A stretch of DNA of 64,000 bases. Source: an uncultured Candidatus Saccharibacteria bacterium (GTDB lineage Bacteria > Patescibacteriota > Minisyncoccia > Phycocordibacterales > UBA9988). This document shows, piece by piece, positions 20,068 to 56,874 of the stretch. Each line of letters starts with the position of its first letter. Position 1 is the stretch's first letter. A program made the position numbers and the translations under genes. The notes beneath the pieces were generated by a model. It worked only from the letters and a program-made list of their open reading frames with translations. It searched no databases and was not told the origin of the DNA. Where the stretch lies: assembly GCA_964401135.1 (NCBI GenBank), contig CAYNXC010000001.1:122778-186777 (forward strand), written 5' to 3'.

Positions 20068-20643
20068 CTACTTCTTCTTTCTTCGTGAAGCCTTCTGCTT
20101 GGCTGCGGGAGCCTTGCTGAAAGGCACTCCAATGGCATCAAAGAGTGCGCGTGCCTCTTCACGATTATGTGCAGTTGTCACCAGCGTAATAGCGAGCCCA
20201 AAGATGTCTCGGAGTTCTTCATCTGCAGTCTCGGGGAAGATGGTGTGCTCTTTAATCCCGATAGTGAGGTTGCCCACCCCGTCCACTCCGCTCGCGGCTA
20301 CACCCTTAAAGTCCTTGGTACGGGGCAGTGACGCGTGGATGAACTTATCTACAAATGCGTACATGCGTGCGCCTCGCAGAGTGACTGCGTAGCCAATCAC
20401 ATCTCCCTCGCGTAGTTTGAAGCTGGCAATAGATTGTTTTGCACGGCGCGGAGAAGCCTTTTGGCCCGTGATGATGGCGAGACGCTTAGCCACATGCTCG
20501 TTACGCGTCTTATCTTTGGCGCGACCAGTGCCTGAAGAGACTACTACTTTAACGAGACGCGGCAAGGAGAAGCGGTTTGTCCGCCCCAATTTCTCACCGA
20601 TACTCGGCAAGGCCTTTTCAATCCGTTCTTTTGTTCCAATCAT
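20068..20643 (-). CDS. rplE: Ribosomal protein uL5. The conserved start is Met 20643; the ORF extends to 20790.
   Basis: MIGTKERIEKALPSIGEKLGRTNRFSLPRLVKVVV... Confidence 0.9.
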   Translation of the reverse strand: MIGTKERIEKALPSIGEKLGRTNRFSLPRLVKVVVSSGTGRAKDKTRNEHVAKRLAIITGQKASPRRAKQSIASFKLREGDVIGYAVTLRGARMYAFVDKFIHASLPRTKDFKGVAASGVDGVGNLTIGIKEHTIFPETADEELRDIFGLAITLVTTAHNREEARALFDAIGVPFSKAPAAKQKASRRKKK

Positions 20644-20653
20644 AGTAGTAGTA

Positions 20654-20965
20654 TTAGATTTCTCGTTCGCAACTGCGGCAGATGCGGATCTTCTTTGTTC
20701 CTTCACCGCGCACACCAAAACGTACTCCCTTACCGCACTTCTCACAGAAAAGTGAGGCGCTGGAACGCGCAATTGGTGCCGGCTTCTCAAGTACTTGTCC
20801 CTTCTGCCCTTCTTTACGACTCTTCTGGCGGCGCTTTTTAATATTCACTCCTTCTACCACCAGACGGTCGGTACTGGTTTGTACTAAGATAACTTTACCC
20901 TTCACACCCTTATCTTTCCCTGAGCGTACAATAACGGTGTCCCCCTTTTTAATCGTAAGTGACAT
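20654..20965 (-). CDS. rplX: Ribosomal protein uL24 with a C-terminal C4 zinc-ribbon extension
   Basis: A KOW domain (KKGDTVIVRSGKDKGVKGKV) and a C-terminal CEKCGKG...CRSC. Confidence 0.85.
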   Translation of the reverse strand: MSLTIKKGDTVIVRSGKDKGVKGKVILVQTSTDRLVVEGVNIKKRRQKSRKEGQKGQVLEKPAPIARSSASLFCEKCGKGVRFGVRGEGTKKIRICRSCEREI

Positions 20966-20970
20966 GATAT

Positions 20971-21342
20971 TTACACAATCTCTGGCGCAAGCGATGCAAT
21001 TTTCTGATAACCGCGTTCGGCGATCTCGCGGGGTATCGGACCAAAGATACGCCCACCCTTGGGATCCTGCTTACCCTTCTCAAGAAGTACCACAGCATTC
21101 TCGTCAAAGCGGATGTAGGTGCCATCCTTGCGGCGGATTGCATCCTTGGTGCGCACAACCACTGCTTGGTGTACTTCCTTTTTCTTTGCGGCCTTGCGTG
21201 GCTCAGCGATTTGTACTGAAAGCACGAGTATGTCGCCCACGCGTGCGTAGCGGCGCTTGGATCCACCGAGTATCTTGAAAACGCGTCCGATCTTGGCACC
21301 GGTGTTATCTGCAATTGTTACGAGTGAGCGTGGCTGTATCAT
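20971..21342 (-). CDS. rplN: Ribosomal protein uL14
   Basis: MIQPRSLVTIADNTGAKIGRV... Confidence 0.95.
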   Translation of the reverse strand: MIQPRSLVTIADNTGAKIGRVFKILGGSKRRYARVGDILVLSVQIAEPRKAAKKKEVHQAVVVRTKDAIRRKDGTYIRFDENAVVLLEKGKQDPKGGRIFGPIPREIAERGYQKIASLAPEIV

Positions 21343-21350
21343 AGTAGTGT

Positions 21351-21596
21351 TTAGGCGTAGATAACCTCAAAATGCTTATCCTTAGATAGTGGTCGACATG
21401 AGCGAATTTCTACCGTATCTCCCTCGTGGAATAGTCCCTTAGGATCATGCGCCTTGTAGCGCTTGCTCCGTGAGATGTACTTACCGTACTTGTGGTGCTT
21501 TACATAGCGCTTCACCAAGACGACGACCGTCTGTGACATTTTGTCAGAGACGACGGTCCCGCGGAGTGTTTTACGAATTGTAGTGGTAGTGGTCAT
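21351..21596 (-). CDS. rpsQ: Ribosomal protein uS17 (start at Met 21596)
   Basis: RKTLRGTVVSDKMSQTVVVLVKRYVKHHKYGKY. Confidence 0.85.
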   Translation of the reverse strand: MTTTTTIRKTLRGTVVSDKMSQTVVVLVKRYVKHHKYGKYISRSKRYKAHDPKGLFHEGDTVEIRSCRPLSKDKHFEVIYA

Positions 21597-21600
21597 AGTA

Positions 21601-21795
21601 TTACTGCGTCTTAGCCACACGAGAGAGCTCGGTGAGTATCCGCGCAAGGTCACGACGGTGGATCCTAATGTCCTTGGTATTTTTACCACGACTCCCGGCA
21701 ATGTCAAAGCGCAGCGTCCGGAGCTCCTCGCGACGCTTAGCCACGAGCTCCGTGAGCTCGCTCGCCTTCTTCCCCTTGTGTGTCTCTTTCTTCAT
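21601..21795 (-). CDS. rpmC: Ribosomal protein uL29
   Basis: 64 aa, ASELTELVAKRREELRTLRFDIA. Confidence 0.85.
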   Translation of the reverse strand: MKKETHKGKKASELTELVAKRREELRTLRFDIAGSRGKNTKDIRIHRRDLARILTELSRVAKTQ

Positions 21796-21825
21796 ACTTG
21801 TTCCTTGATCCTTGGTACTTATTAT

Positions 21826-22245
21826 TTACTCCGTTCGACTAACAATGATGGTCTTAACGGGTAACTTTGCCCCTGCCTTACGAAGTGCATCCTTTGACTC
21901 GCTTGCAGTAAGTCCATCAATCTCAAATAGCACCCGTCCAGGGCGCACAGTAAAGACATAACCCTGTGGGTCTCCCTTCCCCTTACCCATACCCACTTCC
22001 GCCGCCTTGGCGGTGTAGGGTCGGTCGGGGAAGATGCGGATCCATATCTTACCCGTCTTCTTAGTCAGACGCGTCATAGTCTTGCGAGCGCTCTCTATCT
22101 GGTTACTCTTGATGCGCGCCGTACCCAGTGACTTAAGTCCGTGCGATCCAAACGAGAGTTTGGTACCACGCGTCTCAACACGCGCCTTGTGCGGGTTAAC
22201 ACGGTCAGTCTGCCACTTTCTAAATTTTACTTTTTTGGGAAACAT
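21826..22245 (-). CDS. rplP: Ribosomal protein uL16
   Basis: MFPKKVKFRKWQTDRVNPHKARVETRGTKLSFG. Confidence 0.95.
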   Translation of the reverse strand: MFPKKVKFRKWQTDRVNPHKARVETRGTKLSFGSHGLKSLGTARIKSNQIESARKTMTRLTKKTGKIWIRIFPDRPYTAKAAEVGMGKGKGDPQGYVFTVRPGRVLFEIDGLTASESKDALRKAGAKLPVKTIIVSRTE

Positions 22246-22254
22246 ACTTCTGTT

Positions 22255-22911
22255 CTATGATTCAAATACCTCACCACGGTAGATCCAGACCTTGATACCA
22301 ATCACGCCGTACGAGAGGTAGGCCTTCTCGCGAGCGAAATCAATATCCGCACGGAGCGTAGAGAGAGGTACCTGCCCTGCTTTGAATGCTTCACGGCGAC
22401 CCATATCTGCTCCACCCAAGCGACCAGAGAGGGCAATCTTGACCCCCTCCACTCCCTTAGTTGCCGTCGCCTTCTCCATTGCCTGCTTGGCAACACGGCG
22501 GAAGGGTAGACGCTTCTCCAATCCTTCGGCTACCATGTAGGCGAGAATAGCGGCATGCGCCTCGGGAGTCTTGATCTCATCGATGTCTAATTTAAAATCA
22601 CGAGGGATGCTGGCTCCTGCCTTACGCAGTACTGCTTGGATGTCGCTCTTGAGCTTGGCAGCACCCTCACCACTTCTACCTATCACCATACCTGGCCGGG
22701 ATGTTTTGATAGTAATGCGGAAAGAGTCCGCACCGCGCTCTATATCTACACCGTCTACATAGAGACCGCGTAGGCGCTTGGTGAGGTACTCGCGCAGAAG
22801 TACATCTGCTTTAAGGAACTCTTGATATTTACCGCGCGTACCAAACCAGCGTGACTGCCAGTCGCGGATGATGCCGAGTCTATGGGCGTATGGGTGAACA
22901 CTATGCGTCAT
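22255..22911 (-). CDS. rpsC: Ribosomal protein uS3
   Basis: GHKVHPYAHRLGIIRDWQSRWF with KH and S3-C domains. Confidence 0.95.
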   Translation of the reverse strand: MTHSVHPYAHRLGIIRDWQSRWFGTRGKYQEFLKADVLLREYLTKRLRGLYVDGVDIERGADSFRITIKTSRPGMVIGRSGEGAAKLKSDIQAVLRKAGASIPRDFKLDIDEIKTPEAHAAILAYMVAEGLEKRLPFRRVAKQAMEKATATKGVEGVKIALSGRLGGADMGRREAFKAGQVPLSTLRADIDFAREKAYLSYGVIGIKVWIYRGEVFES

Positions 22912-23239
22912 GGTGAGAATCTAGAACCACGCGGACATGGCTGGTGTGCTTATGGAGTGGGTATCCGCGACCACGCGCGCCGGGGCGCATACGCTTTAGG
23001 ACCACTCCCTTATCGACGGTAATCTCTTTAATATACAAATCCTCCTTCTTATTGCTTAAATCAGTTGACAGAGCATTGGCAAGCGCACTCTCGATGAGCT
23101 TTTTTACCGGCGCGGCGGCGCGCTTAGGGAGGTGTGTTAAAGTCGTGATGGCATCCCCTATTTTTTTACCACGCACCAAATCCGCGAGGAGTCGCACCTT
23201 GCGCGGAGACTGGCGGTAGTTTGAGAGAGTTGCTTTCAT
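22901..23239 (-). CDS. rplV: Ribosomal protein uL22
   Basis: ATLSNYRQSPRKVRLLADLVRGKKIGDA. Confidence 0.9.
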   Translation of the reverse strand: MKATLSNYRQSPRKVRLLADLVRGKKIGDAITTLTHLPKRAAAPVKKLIESALANALSTDLSNKKEDLYIKEITVDKGVVLKRMRPGARGRGYPLHKHTSHVRVVLDSHHDA

Positions 23240-23242
23240 AGA

Positions 23243-23584
23243 TTATTTTTTGGTATCCGTTACTGTTTTAGCAGCTTTGGCGGCTGCAATTTCGGCCTCT
23301 CTCTTCTTCTCTTCTAACTCTTTTTGCATCTTACCTCCGTGGCGCATAAACTTACGGGTAGGAGAGAACTCGCCGAGGCGATGGCCAACCATATCTTCTG
23401 TCACCAAGACCTCAATGTGACTGCGACCGTTGTGAACGCCAAAAGTAAAGCCCACCATCTCTGGGGCAATCTGGCTTGCGCGGGACCATGTCCGGACCAC
23501 AGCAGAATCCGCGGGGCGTTTGCCTTCTATCTTTTTTAGTAATTTGGGGTCAATGTACGGACCTTTTTTAAGTGATCGCGCCAT
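23243..23584 (-). CDS. rpsS: Ribosomal protein uS19 with a Lys/Glu-rich C-terminal extension
   Basis: [19 protein letters not shown]...[12 protein letters not shown]. Confidence 0.9.
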
Positions 23585-23616
23585 AAAAAAACGATAGCTC
23601 CTACGAGCCAGATTCC

Positions 23617-23645
23617 ATACTACAAAAACACTAGAACCCTGTCAA
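23617..23645 (-). promoter_or_regulatory. Sigma70-like promoter for the rpsS...rplE fragment
   Basis: On the minus strand, TTGACA, a 17-nt spacer, then TAGTAT, located about 30 nt upstream of the rpsS start. Confidence 0.5.
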
Positions 23646-23704
23646 CTAGGGCGTTTTAGGCCTCCTATCAATAAAAAGCCTATCTCTATGGTATATTTAG
23701 TGTA

Positions 23705-24577
23705 ATGCTGCTGAAAATTGACCTCAAAAAAAGCCCTGAGGAAGATATCGCCTTAATACACAGGTATTTTTTTGAGACAAAGACGGACCATTTTAAAAAA
23801 AGGATTCTACGATTCTACAAAACACTAGAAGACAAATTATCTACTGAGACTGAGGAAAATCACGCTCAAGTTATTGATAGTTTTTTTAAAGATATCTATA
23901 GAAATAAGGCGGAAGAAATAGAGACAATAGTGGATCAGAGCGAGAAAATCATTGATGAAGAATCAACACAGTGCTTGGGAGAACTGGCTAAATTGATGGA
24001 TTATGATACTGAGAAGGAAGAAATATTTATCGCAATACCAACATTATTACCCTTTTCCCCTTTTAATCGACCTATTTTTTATTTTTCTATTGTCTCTAGT
24101 CTATTTAAAGATGGAAAAAACAGCATATTAGATACTGCGATTCACGAGATATCCCACTTTCTCCTCTTTGACATCTTGGACGAATTGGAAATCAATCTGA
24201 ACGATACTCAGGAAAATAAAGACTTCCTCCATCTGTTTAAAGAAGCACTGACTGGGATGTTACTGTCAGAGAAAGAAATGAGTGAATGTCTTGGCATGAA
24301 AGAATACTTTGGAAATCCAGAGGTCCATAATTTAAACATCAAACTCGAAGACGGGAAGCAACTGGTATTTCGTGAATATCTACGTTCAATACTCCATCAG
24401 TACCGGCAACAAGATCTCTCCTTTCAACAATTTATTGCAGATACAATAGAGATACTCCGGCCAAAAGCAGAAGAATTCAGTAAGAAAAAAATATTTTGGA
24501 ATAAAAATGAGCAAAAAATATTAAATAGGGATGAAGAATTATCAAAAGAATACGGGCAACCTATTTTAATTCAGTAA
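23705..24577 (+). CDS. HExxH-motif protein, paralog 1 (putative metallopeptidase-like, function unknown)
   Basis: AIHEISHFLLF, then a shared FLHLFKEAL...LL region. Paralogous to 27993..29084 and 30518..31201. Confidence 0.5.
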   Translation: MLLKIDLKKSPEEDIALIHRYFFETKTDHFKKRILRFYKTLEDKLSTETEENHAQVIDSFFKDIYRNKAEEIETIVDQSEKIIDEESTQCLGELAKLMDYDTEKEEIFIAIPTLLPFSPFNRPIFYFSIVSSLFKDGKNSILDTAIHEISHFLLFDILDELEINLNDTQENKDFLHLFKEALTGMLLSEKEMSECLGMKEYFGNPEVHNLNIKLEDGKQLVFREYLRSILHQYRQQDLSFQQFIADTIEILRPKAEEFSKKKIFWNKNEQKILNRDEELSKEYGQPILIQ

Positions 24578-24756
24578 TCATAAAATAAAAAAGTGGATAC
24601 AATACTAGAGATTGTATCCACTTAATAGATTCAGGCAATGCTTTGACAGCTATGGTCACAGCTGTCGCAAGAGTGATCGGAGTCAGTATTGCAGTCTGTA
24701 TCACAGTCGGAACCGCAATCACCACATTGATTTGATGAACATTTCTAATAACATCG

Positions 24757-25002
24757 TTAACTAAGCAACGTTATCTCACTATCCTCAACCTTCCTCATCT
24801 CAAGTATCTCTTCTTTATTGAGGTCTAAGAAATCAATCACTTCATCATTTTTTGCGTTAAATCCTATCCTACATATAGAATCTTTCTCCCACATAAACAC
24901 GCCAACACACTTGTATTGATTGCCATCACTGCCCTGTATGAGTAATTCAACAACCGTGTTGTTTTCTGTATCGTTTCGATCATTGGGGATTATAGTAGTC
25001 AT
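24757..25002 (-). CDS. Hypothetical protein (81 aa), last gene of a small three-gene operon
   Basis: Overlaps the upstream ORF by 4 nt. No recognisable motif. Confidence 0.35.
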   Translation of the reverse strand: MTTIIPNDRNDTENNTVVELLIQGSDGNQYKCVGVFMWEKDSICRIGFNAKNDEVIDFLDLNKEEILEMRKVEDSEITLLS

Positions 25003-25571
25003 ACAATAGTGTGTATATCAGTGATAAACGCTTTGGGTATAATATAGTAGGTAGGCTTTCCATCAGGATGGTTTACCGCCGGAGCAGGATATGTTCGGAT
25101 AGTTTCTGGGTCTCTTAACACGATGTGATCATCGCACACGCTGTGAAGAATTCCTTCGGAATACATTGTGGAGCAATCTCCCCTCTCCGCATTGCCCACA
25201 TACACAACATCTCGCCAAGTAACTGCTACGCGTGACGATTCTTTTAGATTACTGGGGATGGTAATTTTGAAGTCTTTGCTTACAGAGAGTAGCGCGGAAT
25301 CAGGAATGACCAGTCCTTTTACAATAAAGCTGTCATCAGTCCCATCCTGTCTTCCTGATGCAGATACATTTTTTATAAAAGTAATAATGATGTTATCCCC
25401 ATTCTTTTTCACATACCCAAACGCCTCGTGTGGGGATAATTTGGTTTCGCCAACTTTCTCTTCAAAAAGGTAGTAGGCATCAATGTATTTGATTTTACAG
25501 ATTTCCTCCATAGGTTCATTATATAAAGAAAGCGGATAGGTTGGTACAAACCCTATCCGCTCGATGATCAT
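24999..25571 (-). CDS. Hypothetical protein (190 aa)
   Basis: ORF only. Sits 8 nt downstream of a small Ser/Asp-rich ORF. Confidence 0.4.
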   Translation of the reverse strand: MIIERIGFVPTYPLSLYNEPMEEICKIKYIDAYYLFEEKVGETKLSPHEAFGYVKKNGDNIIITFIKNVSASGRQDGTDDSFIVKGLVIPDSALLSVSKDFKITIPSNLKESSRVAVTWRDVVYVGNAERGDCSTMYSEGILHSVCDDHIVLRDPETIRTYPAPAVNHPDGKPTYYIIPKAFITDIHTIV

Positions 25572-25578
25572 GGTACTA

Positions 25579-25785
25579 TCAGCCGAAGATGGATTTCCAG
25601 AATCCAGTTGCTGCTTTGCCGGAGTCGTCGTCCCGAGGGAATGGTGTACTGTTCAGTGAAGAATTCCCCCTCTCAAACAATCCAGCATCGGTCGCATCAT
25701 CCCGAGCACTGTGCTCAGCAGAAGAGACTTTACCCAGAGAATCTCCGCTATGTGCAGAGGTATCTCCGTCTGTCCATTTACCCAT
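25579..25785 (-). CDS. Small Ser/Asp/Gly-rich protein (about 68 aa, from the ATG at 25785)
   Basis: AAAGGAAG sits 8 nt upstream of the ATG. The product MGKWTDGDTSAHSGDSLGK... leads the operon immediately after the HK stop. Confidence 0.35.
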   Translation of the reverse strand: MGKWTDGDTSAHSGDSLGKVSSAEHSARDDATDAGLFERGNSSLNSTPFPRDDDSGKAATGFWKSIFG

Positions 25786-25883
25786 AACGCCCACTTCCTT
25801 TCTACAAAGTTCAAGGCTCTGTACTCAGAAAATCTGAGTAGAAGTTACTAAACATAGTTTACACTAATCTACTATTTTGTCAA

Positions 25884-27551
25884 TTACCCCTTCTTCGCAG
25901 GGAGCTCCACAATAAAGGTGGAACCGGTACCGGCACCAGTACTCTCGGCCCAGATCTTGCCTTTGTGTGCCTCCACCATCTGCTTGGCCACATATAAGCC
26001 CAGACCGGTACCAGAGTAGTTGACCTTGCCGGCGTCATCGGCGCGGACAAACTTCTCAAAGAGCTTGTGCATCACCTCCGGCGTGAGTCCCACGCCGCTA
26101 TCCTTAATCGCAATGCGCACCTTAGCCTCGCCGTCGCTCACCTTTACTTCAATGGAGCCCGTGGGCGTGTACTTAATGGCGTTGTCGACAAGGTTAGAGA
26201 TCACCTGACTCAATTTACCCGGATCGGCGGTAATCTCATATTCCCCTTCCTCGGCAATAAAGTTGAGCGTGAGCCCCTTCTGTTCGGCGGAAACCTTCAT
26301 TGTAGAGACAACCTTCTCGACGAGATCCCTCACATTCAAGTTGGAAAACTCGTACTTCATCCGTCCCAGCTCAATGCGAGTGACATTCAAAAAATCTTCG
26401 ATCACCACCACGAGCCGCTGACTGGAGTCAAAAATATTTTGGAGCGGCTGGTGCATCTTCTCCCCCACCTCGCCGTAGGAGCCCTCCAGTAACATTGAGG
26501 TGTAGCCCTTGATGGCGGTTAAGGGGCTGCGCAATTGGTGCGAGGCAATGGAAACGAATTCCGTCTTTTGCCGATCCAATTCCTTGAGCTTGAGGTTTGC
26601 TGCAAAGAGACTGTCGTTCGCTTTTGCCAAGTCTCCAGCGAGTCGCTCAATGCGCTCGCGTTGCGCCACCTCCCCCTTTACGCTCCTAACCAGGATGTAG
26701 CCAAAACCGATGGCGATGATGAGGGTAATACCCGTGAGCACAATGTTGACCGGATTTCTCACAAAGAAGAACTCGGACGCAATGAGGATGACCAAGCCCA
26801 CCACCAAGGCCTGTGTGGCGAGGAGCTTAATGTTAAAGGCTTTGAACTGCACAATGAGGTACGCCAAGAAGCCCATAAAGACAAGCATCCCAAAGAGGCC
26901 GTACTGCTCCAATTCAAAGTTATCGATCGCGCTCGCCAAGTAGCCGGTAACGAAAAAGGAGAGGAGGAAGAGGAGCATCCCCACACCGAGCGGCACAATC
27001 TGCTTGCGTAGTGCTGGCTTGACCTTACGGTACCGCACAACAATGACCCTAAATGTCCAGAGCATGAAGATGAGCCCAAGGAGATAGTAGTAGCTCGTGA
27101 AGTAGTGCCCTTCGTGTACTTCACAGTTAGGGAGATCAAAATATTGGAGGTTCCATCTTGATGAGGCAAAGAGGATGACGGGGAGTAAAAGGATGGAGAT
27201 AATGAGCTTTGTATTAAACGAAATATCTTTTTTATCTATATACACATAGACGAAGTACAAACAGAGAGCATACAACAGTGAATACAACACTCCAAACGCC
27301 GGCCAGATAAACTGGATCAGACTAACATTATTATTAGTCCAAGCAATTAGGCTAAGAAAAGACCATAAAGAAAAGACTATTGAGATAGACACTAAAATAG
27401 TTCCGACTAAATTACGCGCACGCACAAAAACAAAAATCCCGATCAATAGTGAGACTATGACTGCGGGAATATGCGAATAATAGAGAAGCCCAGGAACAGA
27501 ATCTGAGAAGAATAAAAACTGCGGATTTGGAATATCGCTACAGAAGATCAT
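25884..27551 (-). CDS. Sensor histidine kinase with a large (about 7-8 TM) N-terminal membrane domain
   Basis: HisKA (IASHQLRSPLTAIKGYTSML) and HATPase_c (GTGLGLYVAKQMVEAHKGKIWAES). No response regulator is adjacent. Confidence 0.85.
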   Translation of the reverse strand: MIFCSDIPNPQFLFFSDSVPGLLYYSHIPAVIVSLLIGIFVFVRARNLVGTILVSISIVFSLWSFLSLIAWTNNNVSLIQFIWPAFGVLYSLLYALCLYFVYVYIDKKDISFNTKLIISILLLPVILFASSRWNLQYFDLPNCEVHEGHYFTSYYYLLGLIFMLWTFRVIVVRYRKVKPALRKQIVPLGVGMLLFLLSFFVTGYLASAIDNFELEQYGLFGMLVFMGFLAYLIVQFKAFNIKLLATQALVVGLVILIASEFFFVRNPVNIVLTGITLIIAIGFGYILVRSVKGEVAQRERIERLAGDLAKANDSLFAANLKLKELDRQKTEFVSIASHQLRSPLTAIKGYTSMLLEGSYGEVGEKMHQPLQNIFDSSQRLVVVIEDFLNVTRIELGRMKYEFSNLNVRDLVEKVVSTMKVSAEQKGLTLNFIAEEGEYEITADPGKLSQVISNLVDNAIKYTPTGSIEVKVSDGEAKVRIAIKDSGVGLTPEVMHKLFEKFVRADDAGKVNYSGTGLGLYVAKQMVEAHKGKIWAESTGAGTGSTFIVELPAKKG

Positions 27552-28069: not shown

Positions 28070-28087
28070 ATCTCTCTATTGTAGCAC
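27979..28087. repeat. Copy A of a roughly 110-bp element repeated three times, covering the SET start codon and first 30 codons
   Basis: Near-identical to 32497..32605 and partly to 30433..30519. The conserved core is GTGCTACAATAGAGAGATATGACATCGGCACAACAGAGACCCTTCTCGTGGATGAG on the minus strand. Confidence 0.8.
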
Positions 28088-29084: not shown

Positions 29085-29122
29085 TGTATATGCACTACCC
29101 GTTATCGGGACCGAGTTGGAGT

Positions 29123-29248: not shown

Positions 29249-29287
29249 GGTAGTCACCTCCTTTCTGTCCTTAAGATCAATTCAATA

Positions 29288-30358: not shown

Positions 30359-30432
30359 GGGAGATACCTCGTTTCTTTATTATTTTAAAGGTTCAAATAT
30401 ATCTGGTATTTTTATACCACATTATTCAACTT

Positions 30433-35697: not shown

Positions 35698-35699
35698 AC

Positions 35700-48426: not shown

Positions 48427-48431
48427 ACCTG

Positions 48432-50093: not shown

Positions 50094-50117
50094 GCCATTC
50101 TAGCAGAAATCCTTCAC

Positions 50118-50152
50118 TAAAAAAGCCCGCCGTGAGGCGGGCTTTTTTGAGC
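50118..50152. terminator. Bidirectional intrinsic terminator
   Basis: AAAAAAGCCCGCCGTGAGGCGGGCTTTTTTGAG. Confidence 0.55.
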
Positions 50153-50166
50153 TAGGTGGTACTAGG

Positions 50167-50607
50167 TTATGGGAAAGGGACTGAGTCGGTTCTCCATGTA
50201 GAGCCAAAGCTGGTTCCAGTAGGGTGACCTCCCTCCCGCGCAGTCCACGAAGCATGGATCAGTCCTACGGCAACAGTATCCTGATTGGGGAGTGCATTCA
50301 TTCCGTCTTCCCGTCTGCTGATAAAAACAAATGTAACGGGGATGATGACCTCTGTATTTTCAGATAAGATGAAACTATTGTCTAATCCTGTAGTAATCAC
50401 TCCTGTGGGAACAGCAAAGTCGGTCGAGGAAGCTACATGAAGCACTCTCGAGGAGCCATAAACACTACGAAGATAAGTAAACCAAGCTGTACGAGGGAAC
50501 ATCGGTGTTTTTGAAGCGACTGTACCAAAAACGATGTCTCCACCAACAGCTCTTACTTTTACAGTAAACGATTGAGTACCTGCATAGCAGAACTCTTCCA
50601 CGCCCAT
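50167..50607 (-). CDS. Hypothetical protein (146 aa)
   Basis: ORF only. Confidence 0.25.
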   Translation of the reverse strand: MGVEEFCYAGTQSFTVKVRAVGGDIVFGTVASKTPMFPRTAWFTYLRSVYGSSRVLHVASSTDFAVPTGVITTGLDNSFILSENTEVIIPVTFVFISRREDGMNALPNQDTVAVGLIHASWTAREGGHPTGTSFGSTWRTDSVPFP

Positions 50608-50708
50608 TCGTTACCCTCTATAGCGATTAGAGACATCTCTGCACTCCTTTCTTGTAAGAGTTCATTTCTAGCGGGCAGTATGATGAGATAAGTACCAATG
50701 GACAAGGG

Positions 50709-51140
50709 CTAAGTACCGGTACTGCCAAAGCCTCTATCTCCTCGTGGGCTATCCTTGAGAGAGGCCGCCTCACAGATCTCAACCCGCGCAACTGGCTGGA
50801 TCAGTACTTGCGCTACTTTTTCGCCTTTTTTGAACAGATAATCTTTGTCACCGAGGTTTACCACACCAACAAGGTACTCTCCACGGTACCCGGCATCGAT
50901 GACTCCACCAATTGTAGTAATACCTGCTTTGAAAGCAATTCCGCTCTTATCCCACACGAGTGAGACATAGCCATCGGGCAATTCCATTGCAATGCCGGTA
51001 GGAACAGTGGTCCGCTTTCCCTTGCGGACGAGGGTATCTTCTACAGCATAAACATCCATTCCCGCATCCCAAGGATATGCGTATGATGGCAACATAGCAT
51101 CTGACTGTAACTTTTTTACTTGAACCTGAAGCATATTCAT
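50709..51140 (-). CDS. dut: dUTP diphosphatase
   Basis: AGMDVYA...TGIAMELPDGY...IDAGYRGE...RGDRGFGSTG, the dUTPase motifs. Confidence 0.8.
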   Translation of the reverse strand: MNMLQVQVKKLQSDAMLPSYAYPWDAGMDVYAVEDTLVRKGKRTTVPTGIAMELPDGYVSLVWDKSGIAFKAGITTIGGVIDAGYRGEYLVGVVNLGDKDYLFKKGEKVAQVLIQPVARVEICEAASLKDSPRGDRGFGSTGT

Positions 51141-51481
51141 GAGTATAGCAAAAATTGCTAGTCTGCAGACAGACAAGAACATTCACAATAAAGAGAAAAA
51201 GGAGGCGGAATGTCTAATAGAAATCTTACGGCACTGATACATCTCGTTGAATTACGCTCTACCAGCGCGGTACTCCCCACGCTCCAACGCCGTGGCTTAC
51301 AGATGGGACATACGCTCTCCTGTCTCCTTTCTGATTACGAGTTCAAGCTCTACTGTGATGAACAGCCATTTGAGCGCTTTGACCCCAATCGCGGGAAGCA
51401 AGATATTGCTTAAAGAGAACTTGCAGTCCTCTGAAGTAAAAAAATAACCCCTCATTCGCTCGTGGCGAATGAGGGGTTTTC

Positions 51482-52573
51482 TTATGCGAAGTGCTTTGAT
51501 AGTCTTGCGATATTCTGAGAACGGTAGTGTGAGGTTCCAAGTTGATCATAGTGCTCATCGGGTGGCTCCGCCATCCGCTCAAAGCGTACCTTTGCAAAGG
51601 CCTGGCCTTTTCGGATAACCAAATCCTCATAAGGTCTCACCTCAAGCGTGATAGGTCTCCCCTTCCCCTTGCCGCTCTTCCCATAGCCCCAACCAGCATC
51701 TATGTATCCAGCGTAATGAGAACGAAATTCTCCATTTCGCGAGTCCATATCTACCACCTCACACGAGAGATGAGGAGGAACACAGACATACTCATGAGTA
51801 GAGAGCACATAGAATTCTCCACAGCGCAGTCGCAACATCTCCCCATCAGAGTACAGGCGCTCAAAGTAATCGAGCCGACGATAGTTACGACAAGAAAAGT
51901 TAAGCACTCTGGACGGTCTCCGGCACCGGTAGCCAACAAAACCTTTTTTGAGCGACAGAGTAAGGAGTACGGATCCATCAGTATCCGTAATAGAGAGGTC
52001 CGAGTACTTAAGCACGGTACCTTCAGGAGAGAAGATGAGTGAGGTACGCTCCATTTCAATCTGGAGCTCCAGCTCTGAAAATCGCGTATTTGCGGTAAAG
52101 AGCCGCAACTGCGCAATCCGTTCTCCTACTGGGATAATAATTGGGTACGATTTTGGTGTAATGGCCGCCCAGAGTGTTGCCGAGTGGCCTGGTGGAGTCA
52201 CAGCATCAAAACGGGGGACCCCATCCGCCAAGACACGGACATGGACATCGTTCCTCCCTGTGCTCGACTTTGGGTTACAGTACCCGTATACCCCATGAGG
52301 CAGAACTACACTCTCTCTGAGCCGCGCAAAATATGAGACACCAACCTCCATGACTTGATGCAAATCATGTAGCGTTGAACCAGCACAAGCGAGTGAATCT
52401 TCTACTCGCTCATTCACACGAGGTTGGACAATCCCTTCTACGCGCCAACATTGGCCCGAGAGCGACAGATCTACTGACGATGGGTTTACCTGCTCATCTA
52501 ACGCTCCACGGATGTGTCCCGTATGGATAAACGACTGTAACATCTGTTGTGGAAGTACTCCGGCATGCTTCAT
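51482..52573 (-). CDS. DCD-family (2'-deoxycytidine 5'-triphosphate deaminase-like, dUTPase-fold) protein
   Basis: About 360 aa with the size and pattern of the long dCTP deaminase family. A GAGGAGG RBS. Confidence 0.4.
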   Translation of the reverse strand: MKHAGVLPQQMLQSFIHTGHIRGALDEQVNPSSVDLSLSGQCWRVEGIVQPRVNERVEDSLACAGSTLHDLHQVMEVGVSYFARLRESVVLPHGVYGYCNPKSSTGRNDVHVRVLADGVPRFDAVTPPGHSATLWAAITPKSYPIIIPVGERIAQLRLFTANTRFSELELQIEMERTSLIFSPEGTVLKYSDLSITDTDGSVLLTLSLKKGFVGYRCRRPSRVLNFSCRNYRRLDYFERLYSDGEMLRLRCGEFYVLSTHEYVCVPPHLSCEVVDMDSRNGEFRSHYAGYIDAGWGYGKSGKGKGRPITLEVRPYEDLVIRKGQAFAKVRFERMAEPPDEHYDQLGTSHYRSQNIARLSKHFA

Positions 52574-52616: not shown

Positions 52617-52650
52617 TAGTACAGAAAAACCCCGCCCTTTGCAAGGGCTG
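52617..52650. terminator. Bidirectional terminator after rplK
   Basis: AAAAACCCCGCCCTTTGCAAGGGCTGGGTTTTT. Confidence 0.5.
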
Positions 52651-52691: not shown

Positions 52692-53117
52692 TTATTTGAT
52701 CACCTCTACTCCCATAGAGCGTGCGGTGCCCTCTACCATACGCATTGCCCCTTCTATATCTGCAGCGTTGAGATCTACCATCTTCTTCTCGGCAATCTCC
52801 TTTACCTGCACCTTGGTGATCTTACCCACCTTCTGTGTTCCCGCTTTGCCCGCCCCCTTATCTAGCTTGGCAGCTTTTAAAATAAACTGCGGGACGGGGG
52901 AAGATTTGAGGATAAAATCAAAGCTCCGGTCATCGTAAATACTCACAATCACCGGGACGATGTCTCCTGCCATCTGTGCGGTTGCCGCGTTGAATTTACT
53001 CACAAAATCACCGATGTTGATGCCAGCGGGTCCGAGAGCAGTACCTACTGGAGGAGCCGGAGTCGCCTTCCCTGCGGGGATCTGAAGCTTTATCTCTTTG
53101 GTCACTTTCTTAGCCAT
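52692..53117 (-). CDS. rplK: Ribosomal protein uL11
   Basis: [26 protein letters not shown]. Confidence 0.95.
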
Positions 53118-53133
53118 GACGCTTTGTTTTACC

Positions 53134-53709
53134 TTAAATTCTCTTAACTTGCAAGAAATCTAGTTCCAAGGGGGTCTCGCGGCCAAACATAGAAACGAGA
53201 ACTTTAACTTTACCACGATCTGTATCTACCTCTGCCACCTTACCCTCAAAGTCTTTGAAGGGACCGTCTACAATTTGTACTGACTCACCTGTCGCTAGCT
53301 CTATGGTGTGCTTCACCGTCTCGTCTCCCATGCGAGAGAAGAGCTCGGCAACCTCCTGCTCATTCAATGGCACCGGAATGACACCCGAGCCAACGAATCC
53401 AGTCACACGAGGCGTGTTGCGAACCACATACCAACTCTCTGGATCGTAGACCATCTCCACAAGCACATAGCCGGGGTAAATTTTCTCTTCTACCGTGATA
53501 CGCTTACCACCTTTCACCTTCACAATCTTTTCAATCGGCACCATCACATTAAAAATCTTCCCTTCCATCCCGAGAGACTCTATACGCTGTTTGAGATTCC
53601 TAAGCACTGTATTCTCGTAGCCAGAGTAGGTATGAATAGCATACCAGCGTTTATCGCCGGATGGAGCCATCTCAAGGAGCGAGGCTGGTTGTGGAGCGTC
53701 AGATTCCAT
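53134..53709 (-). CDS. nusG: Transcription antiterminator NusG
   Basis: [14 protein letters not shown] (NGN) and a C-terminal KOW domain. Confidence 0.9.
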
Positions 53710-53714
53710 ATATA

Positions 53715-53894
53715 TTACACGATGAGTGCGCCAATAAGGTAGGTAAAGATGAGGTCAAAGAGTGCAAGAAAGAGTGATATGCCCGCAGAAAAAATAATCA
53801 CCGTCAGGGTAAAGTTGACTGCCTGATTGCGCGTAGGCCAATTGACATGGTTGAGCTCGCGCTTGGTCTCTTCAAGATATGTTCCAATACTCAT
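53715..53894 (-). CDS. secE: Preprotein translocase SecE (59 aa)
   Basis: Minus-strand translation MSIGTYLEETKRELNHVNWPTRNQAVNFTLTVIIFSAGISLFLALFDLIFTYLIGALIV. Below the ORF-track cutoff. Confidence 0.6.
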   Translation of the reverse strand: MSIGTYLEETKRELNHVNWPTRNQAVNFTLTVIIFSAGISLFLALFDLIFTYLIGALIV

Positions 53895-53994
53895 ATATGT
53901 AGTCTAAATAAAAACGCCCCGCAGGGCAACCTGCCTATCGTAGGCAGGCCCTCAGAATACACCCGCAGGACATCCTTTGTCAAGTTGTTAGACT

Positions 53995-54837
53995 TTACGA
54001 GCGTTTGCCTACTTTGCGGCGAGAGACGATAAAGAGGTTTGAGTACTTCTTAGGGCGGCGAGTCTTTTGGCCCTTGCCGGTCGGCCTACCCCATGCACTC
54101 TTAGCTCGGCGCAATCCCCTGCCTTGACGCCCTTCACCACCTCCATGTGGGTGATCAACAGGGTTCATAGCACTACCGCGCACAGTTGGACGGATACCCA
54201 TCCAGCGAGAACGGCCTGCCTTCCCGATCTTTACCAATTTATATTCCTCGTTAGAAACGGCACCAATACTTGCCCACGCATTCTCATCAATGCGGTGCAC
54301 CTCCGTTGAGGGTAATTTCACATTCACATAGCCTGCGTTTGAGCCCAACACCTCCGCAAAGCTCCCTGCCGATCGCACCAACTTAGCTCCCCCTCTCGGC
54401 TTCATCTCAATGTTATATATAAATGTTCCCGCAGGGATGCGCTTTAAGGGTACACGATTTCCCACCTTCAAGTCCGCTTTTTCAGACACAATAAAGTTGT
54501 CCCCCGCCTTCATACTCTGCGGGATGAGCACATAGCGTCGTTCACCATCACGGTAGAGTGCTACGCCAATAAAGCCCGAGCGATTTGGATCGTATTCAAC
54601 AGATCTGAGCGTAGCGGGAATGTTGTACTTGTTATAACTAAAATCAACTGCACGGTAGAGTCGCTTATGTCCGCCTCCCTTATGGCGCACAGTAACTCGT
54701 CCATCAGCATTCCTCCCCACATGGCGCTTAGCCCCTGTCGTCAAAGACTTAAGTGGTTCTGCATGTGTAAGCACACCCTTGTAGGTGACTGTGCTCATGT
54801 TGCGGCGCGATGGCGTTGTTGCATGGTATGTTTTCAT
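53995..54837 (-). CDS. rplB: Ribosomal protein uL2
   Basis: GRNADGRVTVRHKGGGHKRLYR...HPHGGGEG. Confidence 0.95.
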   Translation of the reverse strand: MKTYHATTPSRRNMSTVTYKGVLTHAEPLKSLTTGAKRHVGRNADGRVTVRHKGGGHKRLYRAVDFSYNKYNIPATLRSVEYDPNRSGFIGVALYRDGERRYVLIPQSMKAGDNFIVSEKADLKVGNRVPLKRIPAGTFIYNIEMKPRGGAKLVRSAGSFAEVLGSNAGYVNVKLPSTEVHRIDENAWASIGAVSNEEYKLVKIGKAGRSRWMGIRPTVRGSAMNPVDHPHGGGEGRQGRGLRRAKSAWGRPTGKGQKTRRPKKYSNLFIVSRRKVGKRS

Positions 54838-54846
54838 ACAGTGTGG

Positions 54847-55149
54847 CTATCCTAATTCAATCGTCTCTCCTTTCTTTAAAAAGACAATTGCTTTTTTAAA
54901 TCCTGCTCGAACGCCACGGATACCACGGCGACCCACGCGGCGTTTGGATGGTACAGAAATAACATTCACCTTCACCGGACTGACTTTATAAAGCTCCTTC
55001 ACGGTACGGAGAATATCACTCTTGGTTGCGCGAGCTGATGCAATAAAGACATAAGCTCCCTTCTCTGCGAGTCCTGCTGCGCGCTCGGAAACATGAGGCT
55101 TAATGAGAGTCGTGGCGCTACGCTTCGTATTGTGTGCAATAGATGACAT
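54847..55149 (-). CDS. rplW: Ribosomal protein uL23
   Basis: Position and pattern (KPHVSERA...YVFIAS). Confidence 0.85.
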   Translation of the reverse strand: MSSIAHNTKRSATTLIKPHVSERAAGLAEKGAYVFIASARATKSDILRTVKELYKVSPVKVNVISVPSKRRVGRRGIRGVRAGFKKAIVFLKKGETIELG

Positions 55150-55150
55150 A

Positions 55151-55816
55151 TTATTTATTCACCCGTTCAGAAAGCTTTTTAAAACCATCCTTCGGATTTG
55201 CGATGACGATGTACTCGTAGGTGAGCAGATCCATGGGGCTAACCGTGCGTAGTTCCTCAACGCGGACGCTGGGGATATTGCGAAAGCCCCTTACCATATC
55301 TCCCTCAAGGGTCGCAGTGGTAATGAGCGCACGCTTACCGCGAGAGTAGCGCAGGCGCGGGCAGTTCACAATTTCTGCAAGCTTACCGAGGCGTTGTGAT
55401 GCCTCCTTTGTCTTTGGCGCCGAGAGTGCTGCTCCTTCTACAAAAAGAATCTCCCCATCGCGTAATTTTTGCGAGAGTACGGTGAGGAGTGCCTTGTCGC
55501 GCATTTTTTTGTTAATCTTGCGCTCGTAGTTACGCTCGTTGGTCGGCCCATGCGTCACACCACCACCCTTCCAGATAGGTGAACGAATGGAGCCGTGCCG
55601 TGCACGGCCAGTCCCCTTTTGGCGCCAAGGCTTTTTACCACCGCCACGGACTTCTCCTCGATCTTTTGCGTGTGCGGAGTTAGCGCGCGCATTACTGCGC
55701 ATAGCGGTAACCACTTGGTGTACGAGGTCCGCATTCCATGGGAGCGAAAAAAGCTCTCCCGGTACTGAGACCATGCCCGCCTTCTTGCCATCCCATGTGT
55801 ATACTTCGTGTTCCAT
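55151..55816 (-). CDS. rplD: Ribosomal protein uL4
   Basis: GGGKKPWRQKGTGRARHGSIRSPIWKGGG. Confidence 0.9.
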   Translation of the reverse strand: MEHEVYTWDGKKAGMVSVPGELFSLPWNADLVHQVVTAMRSNARANSAHAKDRGEVRGGGKKPWRQKGTGRARHGSIRSPIWKGGGVTHGPTNERNYERKINKKMRDKALLTVLSQKLRDGEILFVEGAALSAPKTKEASQRLGKLAEIVNCPRLRYSRGKRALITTATLEGDMVRGFRNIPSVRVEELRTVSPMDLLTYEYIVIANPKDGFKKLSERVNK

Positions 55817-55835
55817 ACTCGTTATTCGTCCAGCA

Positions 55836-56450
55836 CTATGCGGCGGTAACAGCAATCAGCGTCCCGCGACGTCCTGGGATTGCTCCTCCTATGTAGAGCT
55901 CACCCTTCTCGGCATCAACACGGAGTACTTTCAAATTTTTAACCGTTACCTGATCCACTCCCATACGACCCCCCATACGAATCCCCTTAAACACACGCTG
56001 TACACCAGAGGCTCCAATAGAACCTGGCTCGCGTAAGGAGTGCTTTTGTCCGTGACTGCGGCGCCCTCCGTGAAAGCCGTGCCGCTTCACCACACCTTGA
56101 AAGCCCTTCCCTTTAGAGATGCCACGGACCGTTACCGAGTCACCGGGAGTGAACTGGCTCACATCTACCGTATCGCCTACCTTTTTTTCATCACCTTCAT
56201 CTACACGGAACTCCTTAAGATTTTTAAAGAGTCCACCTGAGGCCTTGAGGTGCCCCTTGAGTTGCTTGGTTACCGACTTCTCCTTCGCCACAGTAAAGCC
56301 CACCTGAATAGCAGTGTAACCGTCCTTCTCTTTTGTGCGGACATGGGTCACGGTAACGGGACCTGCTTTGAGCACAGTTGCGCCATAGGCATTGCCGCTC
56401 TCATCAAAGAGCTCCGTCATCGCTGTCTTTGTGGCGAGTAGGTATTTCAT
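55836..56450 (-). CDS. rplC: Ribosomal protein uL3
   Basis: GKGFQGVVKRHGFHGG. Confidence 0.95.
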   Translation of the reverse strand: MKYLLATKTAMTELFDESGNAYGATVLKAGPVTVTHVRTKEKDGYTAIQVGFTVAKEKSVTKQLKGHLKASGGLFKNLKEFRVDEGDEKKVGDTVDVSQFTPGDSVTVRGISKGKGFQGVVKRHGFHGGRRSHGQKHSLREPGSIGASGVQRVFKGIRMGGRMGVDQVTVKNLKVLRVDAEKGELYIGGAIPGRRGTLIAVTAA

Positions 56451-56457
56451 AGGATAA

Positions 56458-56874
56458 CTACATCATCTTCACATCAATATGCACTCCCGATGGGAGTGAG
56501 AGGTTGGTGAGACTCTCAACAATCTTTTGGTTAGGGTTTAAGATATCTAATAGTCGTTTATGGATACGCATCTCAAACTGCTCACGCGAGTTCTTATCAA
56601 TAAAAGACGCGCGATTCACCGTGTAACGCTTGATGCCTGTAGGGATCGGCACTGGGCCGCGCACTTTTGCGTCATAGCGGAGTGCAGTATCTACAATCTG
56701 TTTGACTGAAGCGTCCAGCACCTTATTCTCGTACGCCGAGATGCGGATGCGGAGCTTCCCCAGTTCACCCTCCTTGAGCGCCACCTTAGCTACACCGGCC
56801 CGCTTGTGCGGTGTCGCGGGGCCCTTAGCTTTTGCTTTTGTCGGGGTTGTTGTGGTCATAGTAAGAAAGAACAA
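56458..56874 (-). CDS. rpsJ: Ribosomal protein uS10 with an N-terminal extension of about 35 aa
   Basis: LRIRISAYENKVLDASVKQIVDTA. Confidence 0.85.
   Translation of the reverse strand: MFFLTMTTTTPTKAKAKGPATPHKRAGVAKVALKEGELGKLRIRISAYENKVLDASVKQIVDTALRYDAKVRGPVPIPTGIKRYTVNRASFIDKNSREQFEMRIHKRLLDILNPNQKIVESLTNLSLPSGVHIDVKMM

Follow-up and report, generated by a model that had tools for sequence, protein, structure and literature searches.

The ribosomal-protein super-cluster in the 64,000-nucleotide stretch of DNA analysed here (the window) is broken at two points inside its classical operons, and its rplK gene stands without rplA behind it. We consider it quite probable that the window derives from a Parcubacterium lacking uL1, in which the super-cluster was opened at loosened, promoter-bearing junctions and rplA was deleted in situ. 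For Parcubacteria, absence of the uL1 gene and an extended uS19 have already been described, and the window is one more well-verified example. What is new is that the breaks fall at two of three junctions already loosened in relatives, both carrying conserved promoter-leader modules there.

The CPR origin proposed by the initial annotation is supported by the best genome matches for uL2, which are Candidatus Nomurabacteria/Paceibacterota MAGs with 58-69% identity; uL2 of one congener is 96% identical to that of the window. A neighbour-joining tree of NusG plus uL11 (about 330 residues, without support values) placed the window among CPR loci, apart from loci with the rplKAJL order. The evidence thus supports chromosomal DNA of an uncultivated Parcubacteria/Paceibacteria (CPR) bacterium related to Candidatus Nomurabacteria.

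Two ribosomal-protein blocks and the junctions between them

Gene identities were assigned with NCBIfam equivalog models and their curated cut-offs, and that of nusG through Pfam. Only rplW (70.8 bits against a cut-off of 81) and rplE (182.7 against 186) fall slightly under; the remaining NCBIfam-called ribosomal-operon genes of both blocks exceed their cut-offs. Block 1 (53995..61547, minus strand) consists of rpsL (61125-61547), rpsG (60642-61121), fusA (58485-60641), tuf (56897-58090), rpsJ (56458-56859), rplC (55836-56450), rplD (55151-55816), rplW (54847-55149) and rplB (53995-54837). Instead of joining rpsS directly, rplB is followed after 100 bp by secE (53715-53894), nusG (53134-53709) and rplK (52692-53117), a same-strand group (52692..53894) with no rplA, rplJ or rplL behind it. 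The identities and coordinates first proposed for this region hold. The gene order of block 1 recurs in 10 assemblies of independent origin, and the congener L021 (85% DNA identity) has the same rpsL...rplB-secE-nusG-rplK arrangement.

Block 2, rpsS-rplV-rpsC-rplP-rpmC-rpsQ-rplN-rplX-rplE (20068..23584, minus strand), begins with rpsS (23243-23584), 30.4 kb from rplB on the same strand, and stops, as had been noted, after rplE (20068-20643). Directly after rplE, where relatives carry rpsZ-rpsH-rplF, the window has a convergent open reading frame without family match (orf276, 19236..20066, plus strand). With E. coli and Thermus queries tblastn gave no match to uS14, uS8 or uL6 within the window; all three were readily found in relatives. 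The break at the rplE/rpsZ boundary implies that the remaining spc genes (rpsZ, rpsH, rplF ... secY) are located in another part of the genome.

Within each fragment the order is that of the canonical str-S10-spc cluster (rpsL-rpsG-fusA-tuf-rpsJ-rplCDWB, rpsS-rplV-rpsC-rplP-rpmC-rpsQ-rplNXE and secE-nusG-rplK), whereas the breaks lie inside S10 (rplB/rpsS) and inside spc (rplE/rpsZ), not between the classical operons. The window further differs from the canonical arrangement in that secE-nusG-rplK comes after rplB instead of before rpoBC, that the neighbourhood lacks rplA, rplJ, rplL and rpoBC, and that upstream of rpsL there are an M50 peptidase and bL28. As the blocks are colinear, interposition rather than scrambling is indicated.

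All other relatives retrieved in which rpsS was found keep the order rplB-rpsS...rplE-rpsZ-rpsH-rplF, so that synteny sets the window apart as rearranged. In a survey of their gaps, spacers above 400 bp occurred at fusA/tuf (12 of 20), rplB/rpsS (9 of 25) and rplE/rpsZ (5 of 17), with a few at rpsG/fusA (2 of 12) and rpsJ/rplC (1 of 21) and none at other ribosomal-protein junctions; the one large uL16-uS17 gap (locus L051) spans rpmC, a gene outside the scoring. Inserts of 0.5-7.7 kb occur in relatives at the junctions that are fully disconnected in the genus of the window, and the cargo is mixed: M50 peptidase, racemase, OMP decarboxylase, amidohydrolase, PLP decarboxylase and toxin-antitoxin-like reading frames. 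The breakpoints of the window are thus two of only three junctions recurrently expanded in relatives. The initial annotation had called the locus unusually rearranged; it does differ from every other relative retrieved, but it is broken at the typical weak points of its clade, and the fragmentation is real but largely ordinary for the lineage. In Gammaproteobacteria and Bacilli small insertions between operons precede full disconnection (PMC8046335). The relatives of the window likewise carry inserts at junctions that are fully disconnected in its genus; the difference is that the soft junctions here lie inside single E. coli operons, and that the lineage belongs to the CPR.

Promoter-like sites and leaders

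Upstream of rpsS, exactly where a promoter had been predicted, lies the promoter-like site TTGACA-17-TAGTAT (23645..23617, minus strand), followed by a leader hairpin, GGCTC-GTAG-GAGCT (23610..23595), a T-run and the ATG. Promoter, hairpin and T-run are kept at the same position in about 17 relatives, with or without an insert. The motif matched at 18 places in 513 kb, every one within 150 nt upstream of rpsS; control loci totalling 653 kb gave 7 strand-hits, at 6 unrelated places. The rplB-secE spacer (53895..53994, minus strand) has a comparable organisation, with a promoter-like TTGACA-18-TATTCT (53983..53954), two hairpins, of which the second lies at 53928..53915, and a T-run leading up to the secE ATG; it folds with -24.6 kcal/mol (z -3.96). 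L021 conserves both the promoter-like site and the second hairpin, and about 35 relatives show the same promoter-hairpin-T-run layout before secE. In relatives rpsZ and secE have conserved promoter-leader modules of their own, and tuf a conserved leader sequence with no clear promoter resolved. Promoter-like matches are no commoner than in shuffled sequence, and it is only conservation that supports these sites. Since both breakpoints carry conserved promoter-plus-leader modules in relatives, breakage would have taken place at pre-existing transcription-unit boundaries, and the promoter-like site on each fragment would make expression independent of contiguity.

The leaders seen comprise an AGCUC-loop-GAGCU hairpin with a U-run (rpsS), a UUCUCCUUAAG...UUAAGAAAAAA structure (rpsZ) and the conserved tuf leader. 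We put forward only tentatively that the super-cluster may have been divided into four or more autonomous units (rpsL-fusA, tuf-rplB, rpsS-rplE and rpsZ-...), each with its own conserved, undescribed RNA leader acting as a new autoregulatory ribosomal-protein site or attenuator, and that this modularity would permit the extreme fragmentation of the window. It is plausible, though somewhat short of probable, that the hairpin and T-run ahead of rpsS (likewise those of secE, and of rpsL in relatives) are no regulatory leader and either terminate the upstream unit or form a generic stem-loop that stabilises the 5' end. They look like an intrinsic terminator and resemble the promoter-hairpin-T-run layouts before secE and rpsL in relatives, the rpsS stem is short (5-7 bp, about -8 kcal/mol), and no Rfam family matches: in the window no Rfam ribosomal-protein leader reached the gathering score, and nothing credible was found around rpsS up to E = 10 or in locus L032 up to E = 1. 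However, the rpsS hairpin is placed downstream, not upstream, of the conserved -10 element; 9 loci carry the specific sequence AGCTCGTTAGGAGCT in the rpsS leader, and 1.1 Mb of related loci contain it at no other place; and substitutions in the outer pairs compensate each other (A-U, G-C, U-A), a covariation seen by eye in two outer pairs only. RNAalifold on a MAFFT alignment of the rpsS leader returned no consensus structure.

To our knowledge no ribosomal-protein leader regulators have been described in CPR bacteria. In E. coli the S10 leader is an attenuator controlled by L4 and, like the putative leader of the window, places a short structured element and a U-run between the promoter and the first ribosomal-protein gene; the window hairpin is much smaller, and the two share no sequence or Rfam similarity. 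The distribution of such leader attenuators is discussed in PMC3616713.

The neighbourhood of rplK and the continuity of the contig

Downstream of rplK the initial annotation had noticed a terminator and a DCD-like gene, and both are there. The hairpin GCCCTTGCAAAGGGC with a T-run (52648..52634, minus strand) has the appearance of a terminator, and after a 118-bp spacer comes a two-domain dCTP deaminase of 363 amino acids (51482-52573, minus strand; PF06559/PF22569), the first of a Pfam-identified series of dCTP deaminase, dUTPase (50709-51140, minus strand), orf146, argS and ileS (45100..52573, minus strand). None of rplA-rplJ-rplL-rpoB-rpoC is present within the window, so that rplK lacks its usual followers; tblastn with E. 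coli and Thermus queries found no uL1, uL10 or bL12 in the window, and found them readily in relatives. In the NusG-uL11 tree the window nests in a 33-locus clade in which uL1 is missing from at least the first 1.5 kb downstream of rplK. The sister loci L073, L111, L113, L115, L123 and L130 keep rplK-rplA, with dut further along the same locus in four of the six, and the order rplK-(variable)-dut-argS-ileS is kept across many uL1-less relatives. The group secE-nusG-rplK with dCTP deaminase...ileS is, judging from these gene orders, most likely an ancestral syntenic block. Sister loci keeping rplK-rplA-...-dut in the block from which the window clade lacks rplA point to loss in situ, corresponding to the published 'OD1-L1' trait (Brown et al. 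2015, as cited in PMC5220378), and we infer that the loss is genome-wide. The uL1 absence, ascribed from the outset to a Parcubacteria subgroup, agrees with this published group and is seen here at the level of a clade.

The window shares with OD1-L1 its Parcubacteria affiliation and the rplK without rplA behind it, and shows no conflicting feature. It also has the enlarged uS10 and the Ala/Lys-rich C-terminal extension of uS19 described for Parcubacteria: uS10 (rpsJ) carries a Lys-rich N-terminal extension, uS10 being already listed as enlarged in CPR, and the uS19 (rpsS) extension is already published. These two predicted extensions stand, whereas that of uL24 does not, because its C4 motif (C74xxC77...C95xxC98) lies within the normal length of 103 amino acids. 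Other CPR share the motif, as do non-CPR outgroups, and the C4 form is an ancestral variant. The zinc-ribbon form claimed for bL28 is borne out by two cysteine pairs (C4xxC7...C52xxC55), although the gene (62557..62769, plus strand, divergent from the rpsL block) lies beyond the span to which it had been assigned. It is a probable bL28, scoring 17 bits with Pfam L28, below the cut-off, and is homologous and syntenic with bL28 of relatives. Both bL28 and uL24 thus possess the two CxxC pairs expected of putative zinc-ribbon (C+) small ribosomal proteins.

A low-GC accessory island of roughly 9 kb (23600..32610) adjoins rpsS. It contains three direct repeats of 74-112 bp (27980-28090, 30446-30519 and 32499-32609), each consisting of a promoter-like site and the 5' end of a SET-domain gene. 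Every independent k=31 assembly ends at these repeats. Hence only the assembly of the window joins the rpsS half, which reaches 28.0 kb, to the rplB half, which starts at 32.6 kb, and the statement that the blocks are colinear and 30 kb apart derives from it.

That the contig is a misassembly of two loci, perhaps from different strains or organisms, and its fragmentation an artefact, is quite improbable. Such a reading could draw on the three near-identical direct repeats between the ribosomal blocks, at which all independent contigs stop, and on the strain-variable island content, L011 having other sequence past repeat 2 and L135 past ssb. But none of the four junctions by which the fragmentation is defined involves the repeats, and since about 10 independent assemblies reproduce each of them, they are no assembly artefacts: rplB/secE and rplK/DCD recur in 10 Logan assemblies of separate runs (98.5-99.97% identity), and orf290/rpsS and rplE/orf276, the two flanks of block 2, also in 10. 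L021, a second species, has the rplB/secE junction too, both halves occur in the same samples (among them SRR27197497, SRR27197509, SRR27197517 and SRR10580904), and GC stays uniform at about 0.50 except in the island. Even with a wrong join, secE would still follow rplB and an unrelated divergent gene would still precede rpsS.

That the 30 kb entered an otherwise intact S10 operon as one island, mobile or horizontally acquired, is very improbable. Small foreign-looking inserts do occur at exactly the rplB/rpsS junction in relatives, and the 9 kb beside rpsS are low in GC, strain-variable and repeat-bounded; yet about 21 kb of the interval have normal GC and core genes (secE, nusG, rplK, argS, ileS, recO, a glyS-like class II aminoacyl-tRNA synthetase, metG, rpsF, ssb, rpsR), the order secE-nusG-rplK-...-dut-argS-ileS appears ancestral in the clade, no integrase or transposase was found, and one insertion would leave the break after rplE unexplained. 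It is likewise unlikely that rplA was relocated elsewhere, as rpsZ...secY must be, rather than lost. The genome is demonstrably rearranged, only 64 kb of it were examined, and rplJ-rplL are separated from rplK in sister Parcubacteria, so detachment does occur; against this, none of the 33 related loci has uL1 after rplK, sister lineages retain it in the same neighbourhood, and according to three papers a Parcubacteria subgroup lacks rpL1 throughout the genome (PMC5220378, PMC7304191, bioRxiv 10.1101/2022.01.07.475337).

Proposed opening of the super-cluster

We therefore favour opening at loosened junctions with in-situ deletion of rplA. In the wider clade the str-S10-spc super-cluster has ceased to be one tight unit: wide spacers with a promoter-like site and a short leader precede rpsS and rpsZ, a conserved leader precedes tuf, and fusA/tuf, rplB/rpsS and rplE/rpsZ repeatedly contain unrelated genes. 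In the genus of the window the rplB/rpsS boundary would have opened fully, to hold secE-nusG-rplK-...-dut-argS-ileS, further housekeeping genes and the island, and the rplE/rpsZ boundary would have broken as well. Deletion of rplA from the rplK-rplA-...-dut neighbourhood would have occurred in the clade ancestor.

The non-random breaks give a concrete, testable picture of a highly conserved operon cluster coming apart in reduced genomes, and the analysis provides candidate ribosomal-protein leader RNAs in CPR bacteria. Moreover, binning and phylogenomics pipelines that assume one ribosomal-protein block per contig would recover a partial marker set from the genus of the window.

Ribosomal blocks and the interval between them

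The identities and coordinates of the ribosomal genes named in the initial annotation were all confirmed, on the minus strand, by NCBIfam equivalog models. One block comprises rpsL, rpsG, fusA, tuf, rpsJ, rplC, rplD, rplW and rplB, followed by secE, nusG (identified by Pfam) and rplK; the other contains rpsS, rplV, rpsC, rplP, rpmC, rpsQ, rplN, rplX and rplE. The products of rplW and rplE score just under the curated cut-offs, and the other equivalog-called genes above them. Upstream of rpsL there is an M50 peptidase gene and a divergent gene for a small C4 protein, and not rpoBC, while a convergent ORF without family directly follows rplE. With E. coli and Thermus queries, tblastn gave no match in the window to uL1, uL10, bL12, uS14, uS8, uL6, bL9 or bL33, in agreement with the stated absence of rpsN, rpsH and rplF; the same uL1, uL10, bL12, uS14, uS8 and uL6 queries readily matched the related loci. 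The rpsF-ssb-rpsR genes (35211-35496, 35497-36655) are not followed by rplI.

Beyond rplK, Pfam identified a two-domain dCTP deaminase (363 aa), a dUTPase, argS, ileS and recO, then a class II aminoacyl-tRNA synthetase, an M16 peptidase, an AI-2E transporter, metG, tatD, rpsF-ssb-rpsR and an EamA transporter. Next comes a poorly annotated stretch encoding a histidine kinase, a SET-domain protein, a radical-SAM protein, a CYTH protein and several family-less ORFs. The window (48.8% GC) carries three tRNA genes and a bacterial RNase P RNA and lacks rRNA. The 1108-aa product of ileS (45100-48426, minus strand) contains a histidine-phosphatase domain, PF00300, inside the catalytic domain (residues ~486-634). 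The ileS genes of L080, L107 and L129, related loci retrieved for comparison, share this insertion, which is therefore a clade trait; L096 lacks it. Upstream of rpsF (at 36656), lepA (10318), argS (50094) and rpsL (61548), a -10-like hexamer is placed just 3-14 nt ahead of the start codon, with no Shine-Dalgarno sequence, which suggests leaderless or near-leaderless mRNAs.

The organism was recovered from many independent short-read assemblies by exact-protein look-up. Ten contigs, each from a different sequencing run, show the order rplB-secE-nusG-rplK-dCTP deaminase with 98.5-99.97% DNA identity to the window, and a further ten hold the rpsS-rplE block in full, together with its divergent neighbour ahead of rpsS and its convergent neighbour behind rplE. 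The same rpsL...rplB-secE-nusG-rplK order occurs in L021, from assembly CAZNKH01, a second species of the genus (85% DNA identity, 96% uL2 identity). Because the junctions recur in independent assemblies and in this congener, the fragmentation of the ribosomal cluster is not an assembly artefact, the alternative that the initial annotation had named as a possible refutation. An independent 20.3-kb contig spans 58.1 to 37.8 kb, another set 37.8 to 32.55 kb, and others 13.2 to 30.5 kb. The contig break recurring at 37772 is caused only by an in-frame 21-nt tandem repeat in metG (37743-37805; two perfect copies and one degenerate). Look-up with the M16 peptidase returned no record, probably owing to a different start-codon call, and the neighbouring AI-2E transporter gene gave matches. 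Three direct repeats (27980-28090, 30446-30519 and 32499-32609), 74-112 bp long and 88-94% identical, are situated between the two halves, and all the independent contigs stop at them; consequently no contig of the k=31 Logan assemblies spans 28-32.6 kb, and the exact 30.4-kb separation and colinearity of the two blocks on one molecule are known from the window assembly alone.

From 53.9 to about 32.6 kb the interval has a normal GC content (~0.50) and core genes in ancestral order, whereas the part between 32.6 and 23.6 kb holds accessory genes at a lower GC content of 0.33-0.45. Each direct repeat consists of the promoter-like element TGCTACAAT, an ATG and approximately the first 25 codons of the SET-domain gene, copies 2 and 3 being truncated; together they bracket two cassettes of 2.0-2.4 kb within the low-GC island. 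Content beyond repeat 2 differs in one strain. A single mobile-element insertion separating the blocks was considered and rejected, since the interval is mostly ancestral core synteny and neither integrase nor transposase was detected between the blocks. Taking into account the GC step, the gene content and the strain variation, the interval is made up of a variable accessory island adjoining rpsS, as in relatives, and a translocated core block.

Absence of rplA and traits of the lineage

Scanning metagenomes with uL11 yielded 80 related loci, of which 49 were scored (complete NusG and uL11, at least 1.5 kb downstream). Among these, non-CPR-like loci have the order rplK-rplA-rplJ-rplL, and six Parcubacteria-like loci (L073, L111, L113, L115, L123, L130) have rplK-rplA without rplJ-rplL, with dUTPase after rplA within the locus in four of the six; uL1 is absent in all the remaining scored loci. 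A neighbour-joining tree of NusG and uL11 places the window inside a 33-locus clade, no member of which has uL1. The arrangement secE-nusG-rplK-(variable stretch)-dut-argS-ileS is widely kept in this clade, and in L107 and L109 the dCTP deaminase gene directly follows rplK, as in the window. The dropping of rplA from an otherwise retained neighbourhood argues for an in-place deletion by a common ancestor and against relocation of the gene in this genome, and we infer that it is absent genome-wide. That an unannotated ORF might encode a divergent uL1 was rejected, as the main long ORFs without Pfam family gave no Ribosomal_L1 match at E <= 1e-3. The absence of uL1 from the window and its clade matches that of a Parcubacteria subgroup, the 'OD1-L1' group of Brown et al. 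2015 as cited in PMC5220378, confirmed on about 1000 CPR genomes (PMC7304191) and again on 69 complete genomes together with 828 drafts (bioRxiv 10.1101/2022.01.07.475337), in keeping with the initial reading of the missing rplA as a Parcubacteria trait. Downstream of the dCTP deaminase (50.7-51.5 kb) strains vary: comparison with L007 and L008 indicates that in some populations a convergent thyX (PF02511) takes the place of the window's dUTPase gene.

A uL2 scan, restricted to one genome per species, returned 32 loci. Bar the congener, the best matches (58-69% identity) are labelled Candidatus Nomurabacteria, Paceibacteria/Paceibacterota or Patescibacteria, some automated records bearing a Saccharibacteria label. 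These genome labels support assignment at the CPR/Parcubacteria level, and with it the proposed CPR origin.

Four ribosomal proteins had been described as extended or as zinc-ribbon forms. The 113-aa uS19 does have a C-terminal tail, rich in Ala and Lys, which is found in all CPR relatives examined and is absent in non-CPR outgroups; such a tail is described as specific to Parcubacteria and 'phylum group I', and S10 is listed as one of the enlarged CPR proteins (both bioRxiv 10.1101/2022.01.07.475337). The N-terminal extension of uS10 is likewise real, Lys-rich, ~33 aa long, and common to relatives with variable length. The CxxC pairs of uL24 are present, but as CxxC-17-CxxC inside the normal 103-aa length, and hence not in an extension. 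Niyogibacteria-like CPR and non-CPR outgroups share this pattern, which makes the uL24 of the window an ancestral cysteine-bearing variant by sequence comparison; in Nomurabacteria-like relatives the cysteines are lost or the protein is cut to 72 aa. The 72-aa form (L026, L027, L033, L035, L049, L050) misses the whole C-terminal third, which in the window carries the C4 motif. The bL28 candidate (62557-62769) scores 17 bits with Pfam, below cut-off; it is homologous and syntenic with bL28 of relatives and has a C4 pattern like that of L021, L042 and L043.

Junctions of the cluster and their leaders

Except for the congener, every relative in which rpsS was found keeps the order rplB, rpsS...rplE, rpsZ-rpsH-rplF (rpsZ being the uS14 gene), and the locus of the window is accordingly rearranged, as had been proposed. 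All adjacent spacers were surveyed across related loci, those above 400 bp being counted as large. Large spacers are found at fusA|tuf in 12/20 loci, at rplB|rpsS in 9/25 (0.5-7.7 kb), at rplE|rpsZ in 5/17 (0.7-1.9 kb), at rpsG|fusA in 2/12, at rpsJ|rplC in 1/21, and at no other ribosomal-protein junction; the single large uL16-uS17 gap (L051, 457 bp) includes rpmC, a gene left unscored. In two further loci rpsS was not reached within 1.1-2.4 kb past rplB. The inserted genes are mutually unrelated: M50 peptidase, glutamate-racemase-like, OMP decarboxylase, amidohydrolase, PLP-dependent decarboxylase, diacylglycerol-kinase-like protein and toxin-antitoxin-like pairs. The two breakpoints of the window are therefore two of the three soft junctions of the clade. 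Without inserts, the rplB-rpsS and rplE-rpsZ spacers measure ~100-270 bp in Nomurabacteria-like genomes, against 8-40 bp in CPR and non-CPR genomes at a greater distance. We read the conserved signals at these junctions, described below, as evidence that the super-cluster of the clade was probably already split into separate transcription units at these junctions, in which case insertions and rearrangements there would be nearly neutral. In Gammaproteobacteria and Bacilli, operon pairs have been described as coming apart in the same two steps, first by small insertions and later by complete disconnection (PMC8046335).

The near-consensus promoter reported upstream of rpsS is present at 23645..23617 (TTGACA-17-TAGTAT, a 10-of-12 match), but alone it is not significant, since shuffled sequence gives as many matches. 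About 17 relatives, with or without an insert, nevertheless carry the same module ahead of rpsS: TTGACT-16-TAT(G/T)AT, 6-10 nt, the hairpin AAGCTC-GTTAG-GAGCTT, TTTTGTTT and ATG. The window hairpin is TGGCTC-GTAG-GAGCTA, and from this and the variants GGCTCTGGTAGAGCC and GGCTCAAATGAGAGCC the two outer pairs are seen, by eye, to change in a compensating way. For 17 rpsS leaders aligned with MAFFT, RNAalifold gave no consensus structure, as loops of differing length put the stems out of register, and the leader was assessed instead by single-sequence folds (about -8 to -10 kcal/mol) and by a motif search, which gave 18 matches in 513 kb of related loci, all <=150 nt upstream of rpsS, and, in control loci totalling 653 kb, matches at 6 unrelated places (7 strand-hits).

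Other leaders were found in relatives. Upstream of rpsZ only, in 9-11 loci, an extended -10-like element is followed by a larger conserved structure with core TTCTCCTTAAG ... TTAAGAAAAAA and covarying flanks, a possible uS8 or uS14 operator. This structured rpsZ-rpsH leader occurs in the Nomurabacteria-like L023, L026, L027, L031-L035, L037, L049 and L050 (e.g. L032:14640-14736). The conserved tuf leader, ...CCTTAGYRACTGGTTCTCGTAYRYTRAGT..., is seen in L025, L026, L030, L032-L035, L037, L049 and L050, also Nomurabacteria-like; that of the window differs. In relatives rpsL is preceded by a promoter, a hairpin and TTTTGTTT, and secE-nusG-rplK, in the window (53915-53983, minus strand) and almost throughout the clade, in about 35 relatives, by a promoter-like site, a GC-rich hairpin and a T-run, which could form a promoter-proximal attenuator or stabiliser. 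The rpsS, rpsZ, tuf, rpsL and secE leaders have no Rfam match at gathering scores or permissive E-values. The promoters at the junctions are putative, and the hairpins there could serve as attenuators, protein operators or 5' stabilisers.

Overall, the initial observation is confirmed and the interpretation given to it is supported. For the most part it is Parcubacteria biology that was known before (loss of uL1, the tail of uS19, an enlarged uS10), together with a genus-specific change of gene order. The modest part that would go beyond the literature found is twofold: the breaks fall at non-random places, and leader modules are conserved.
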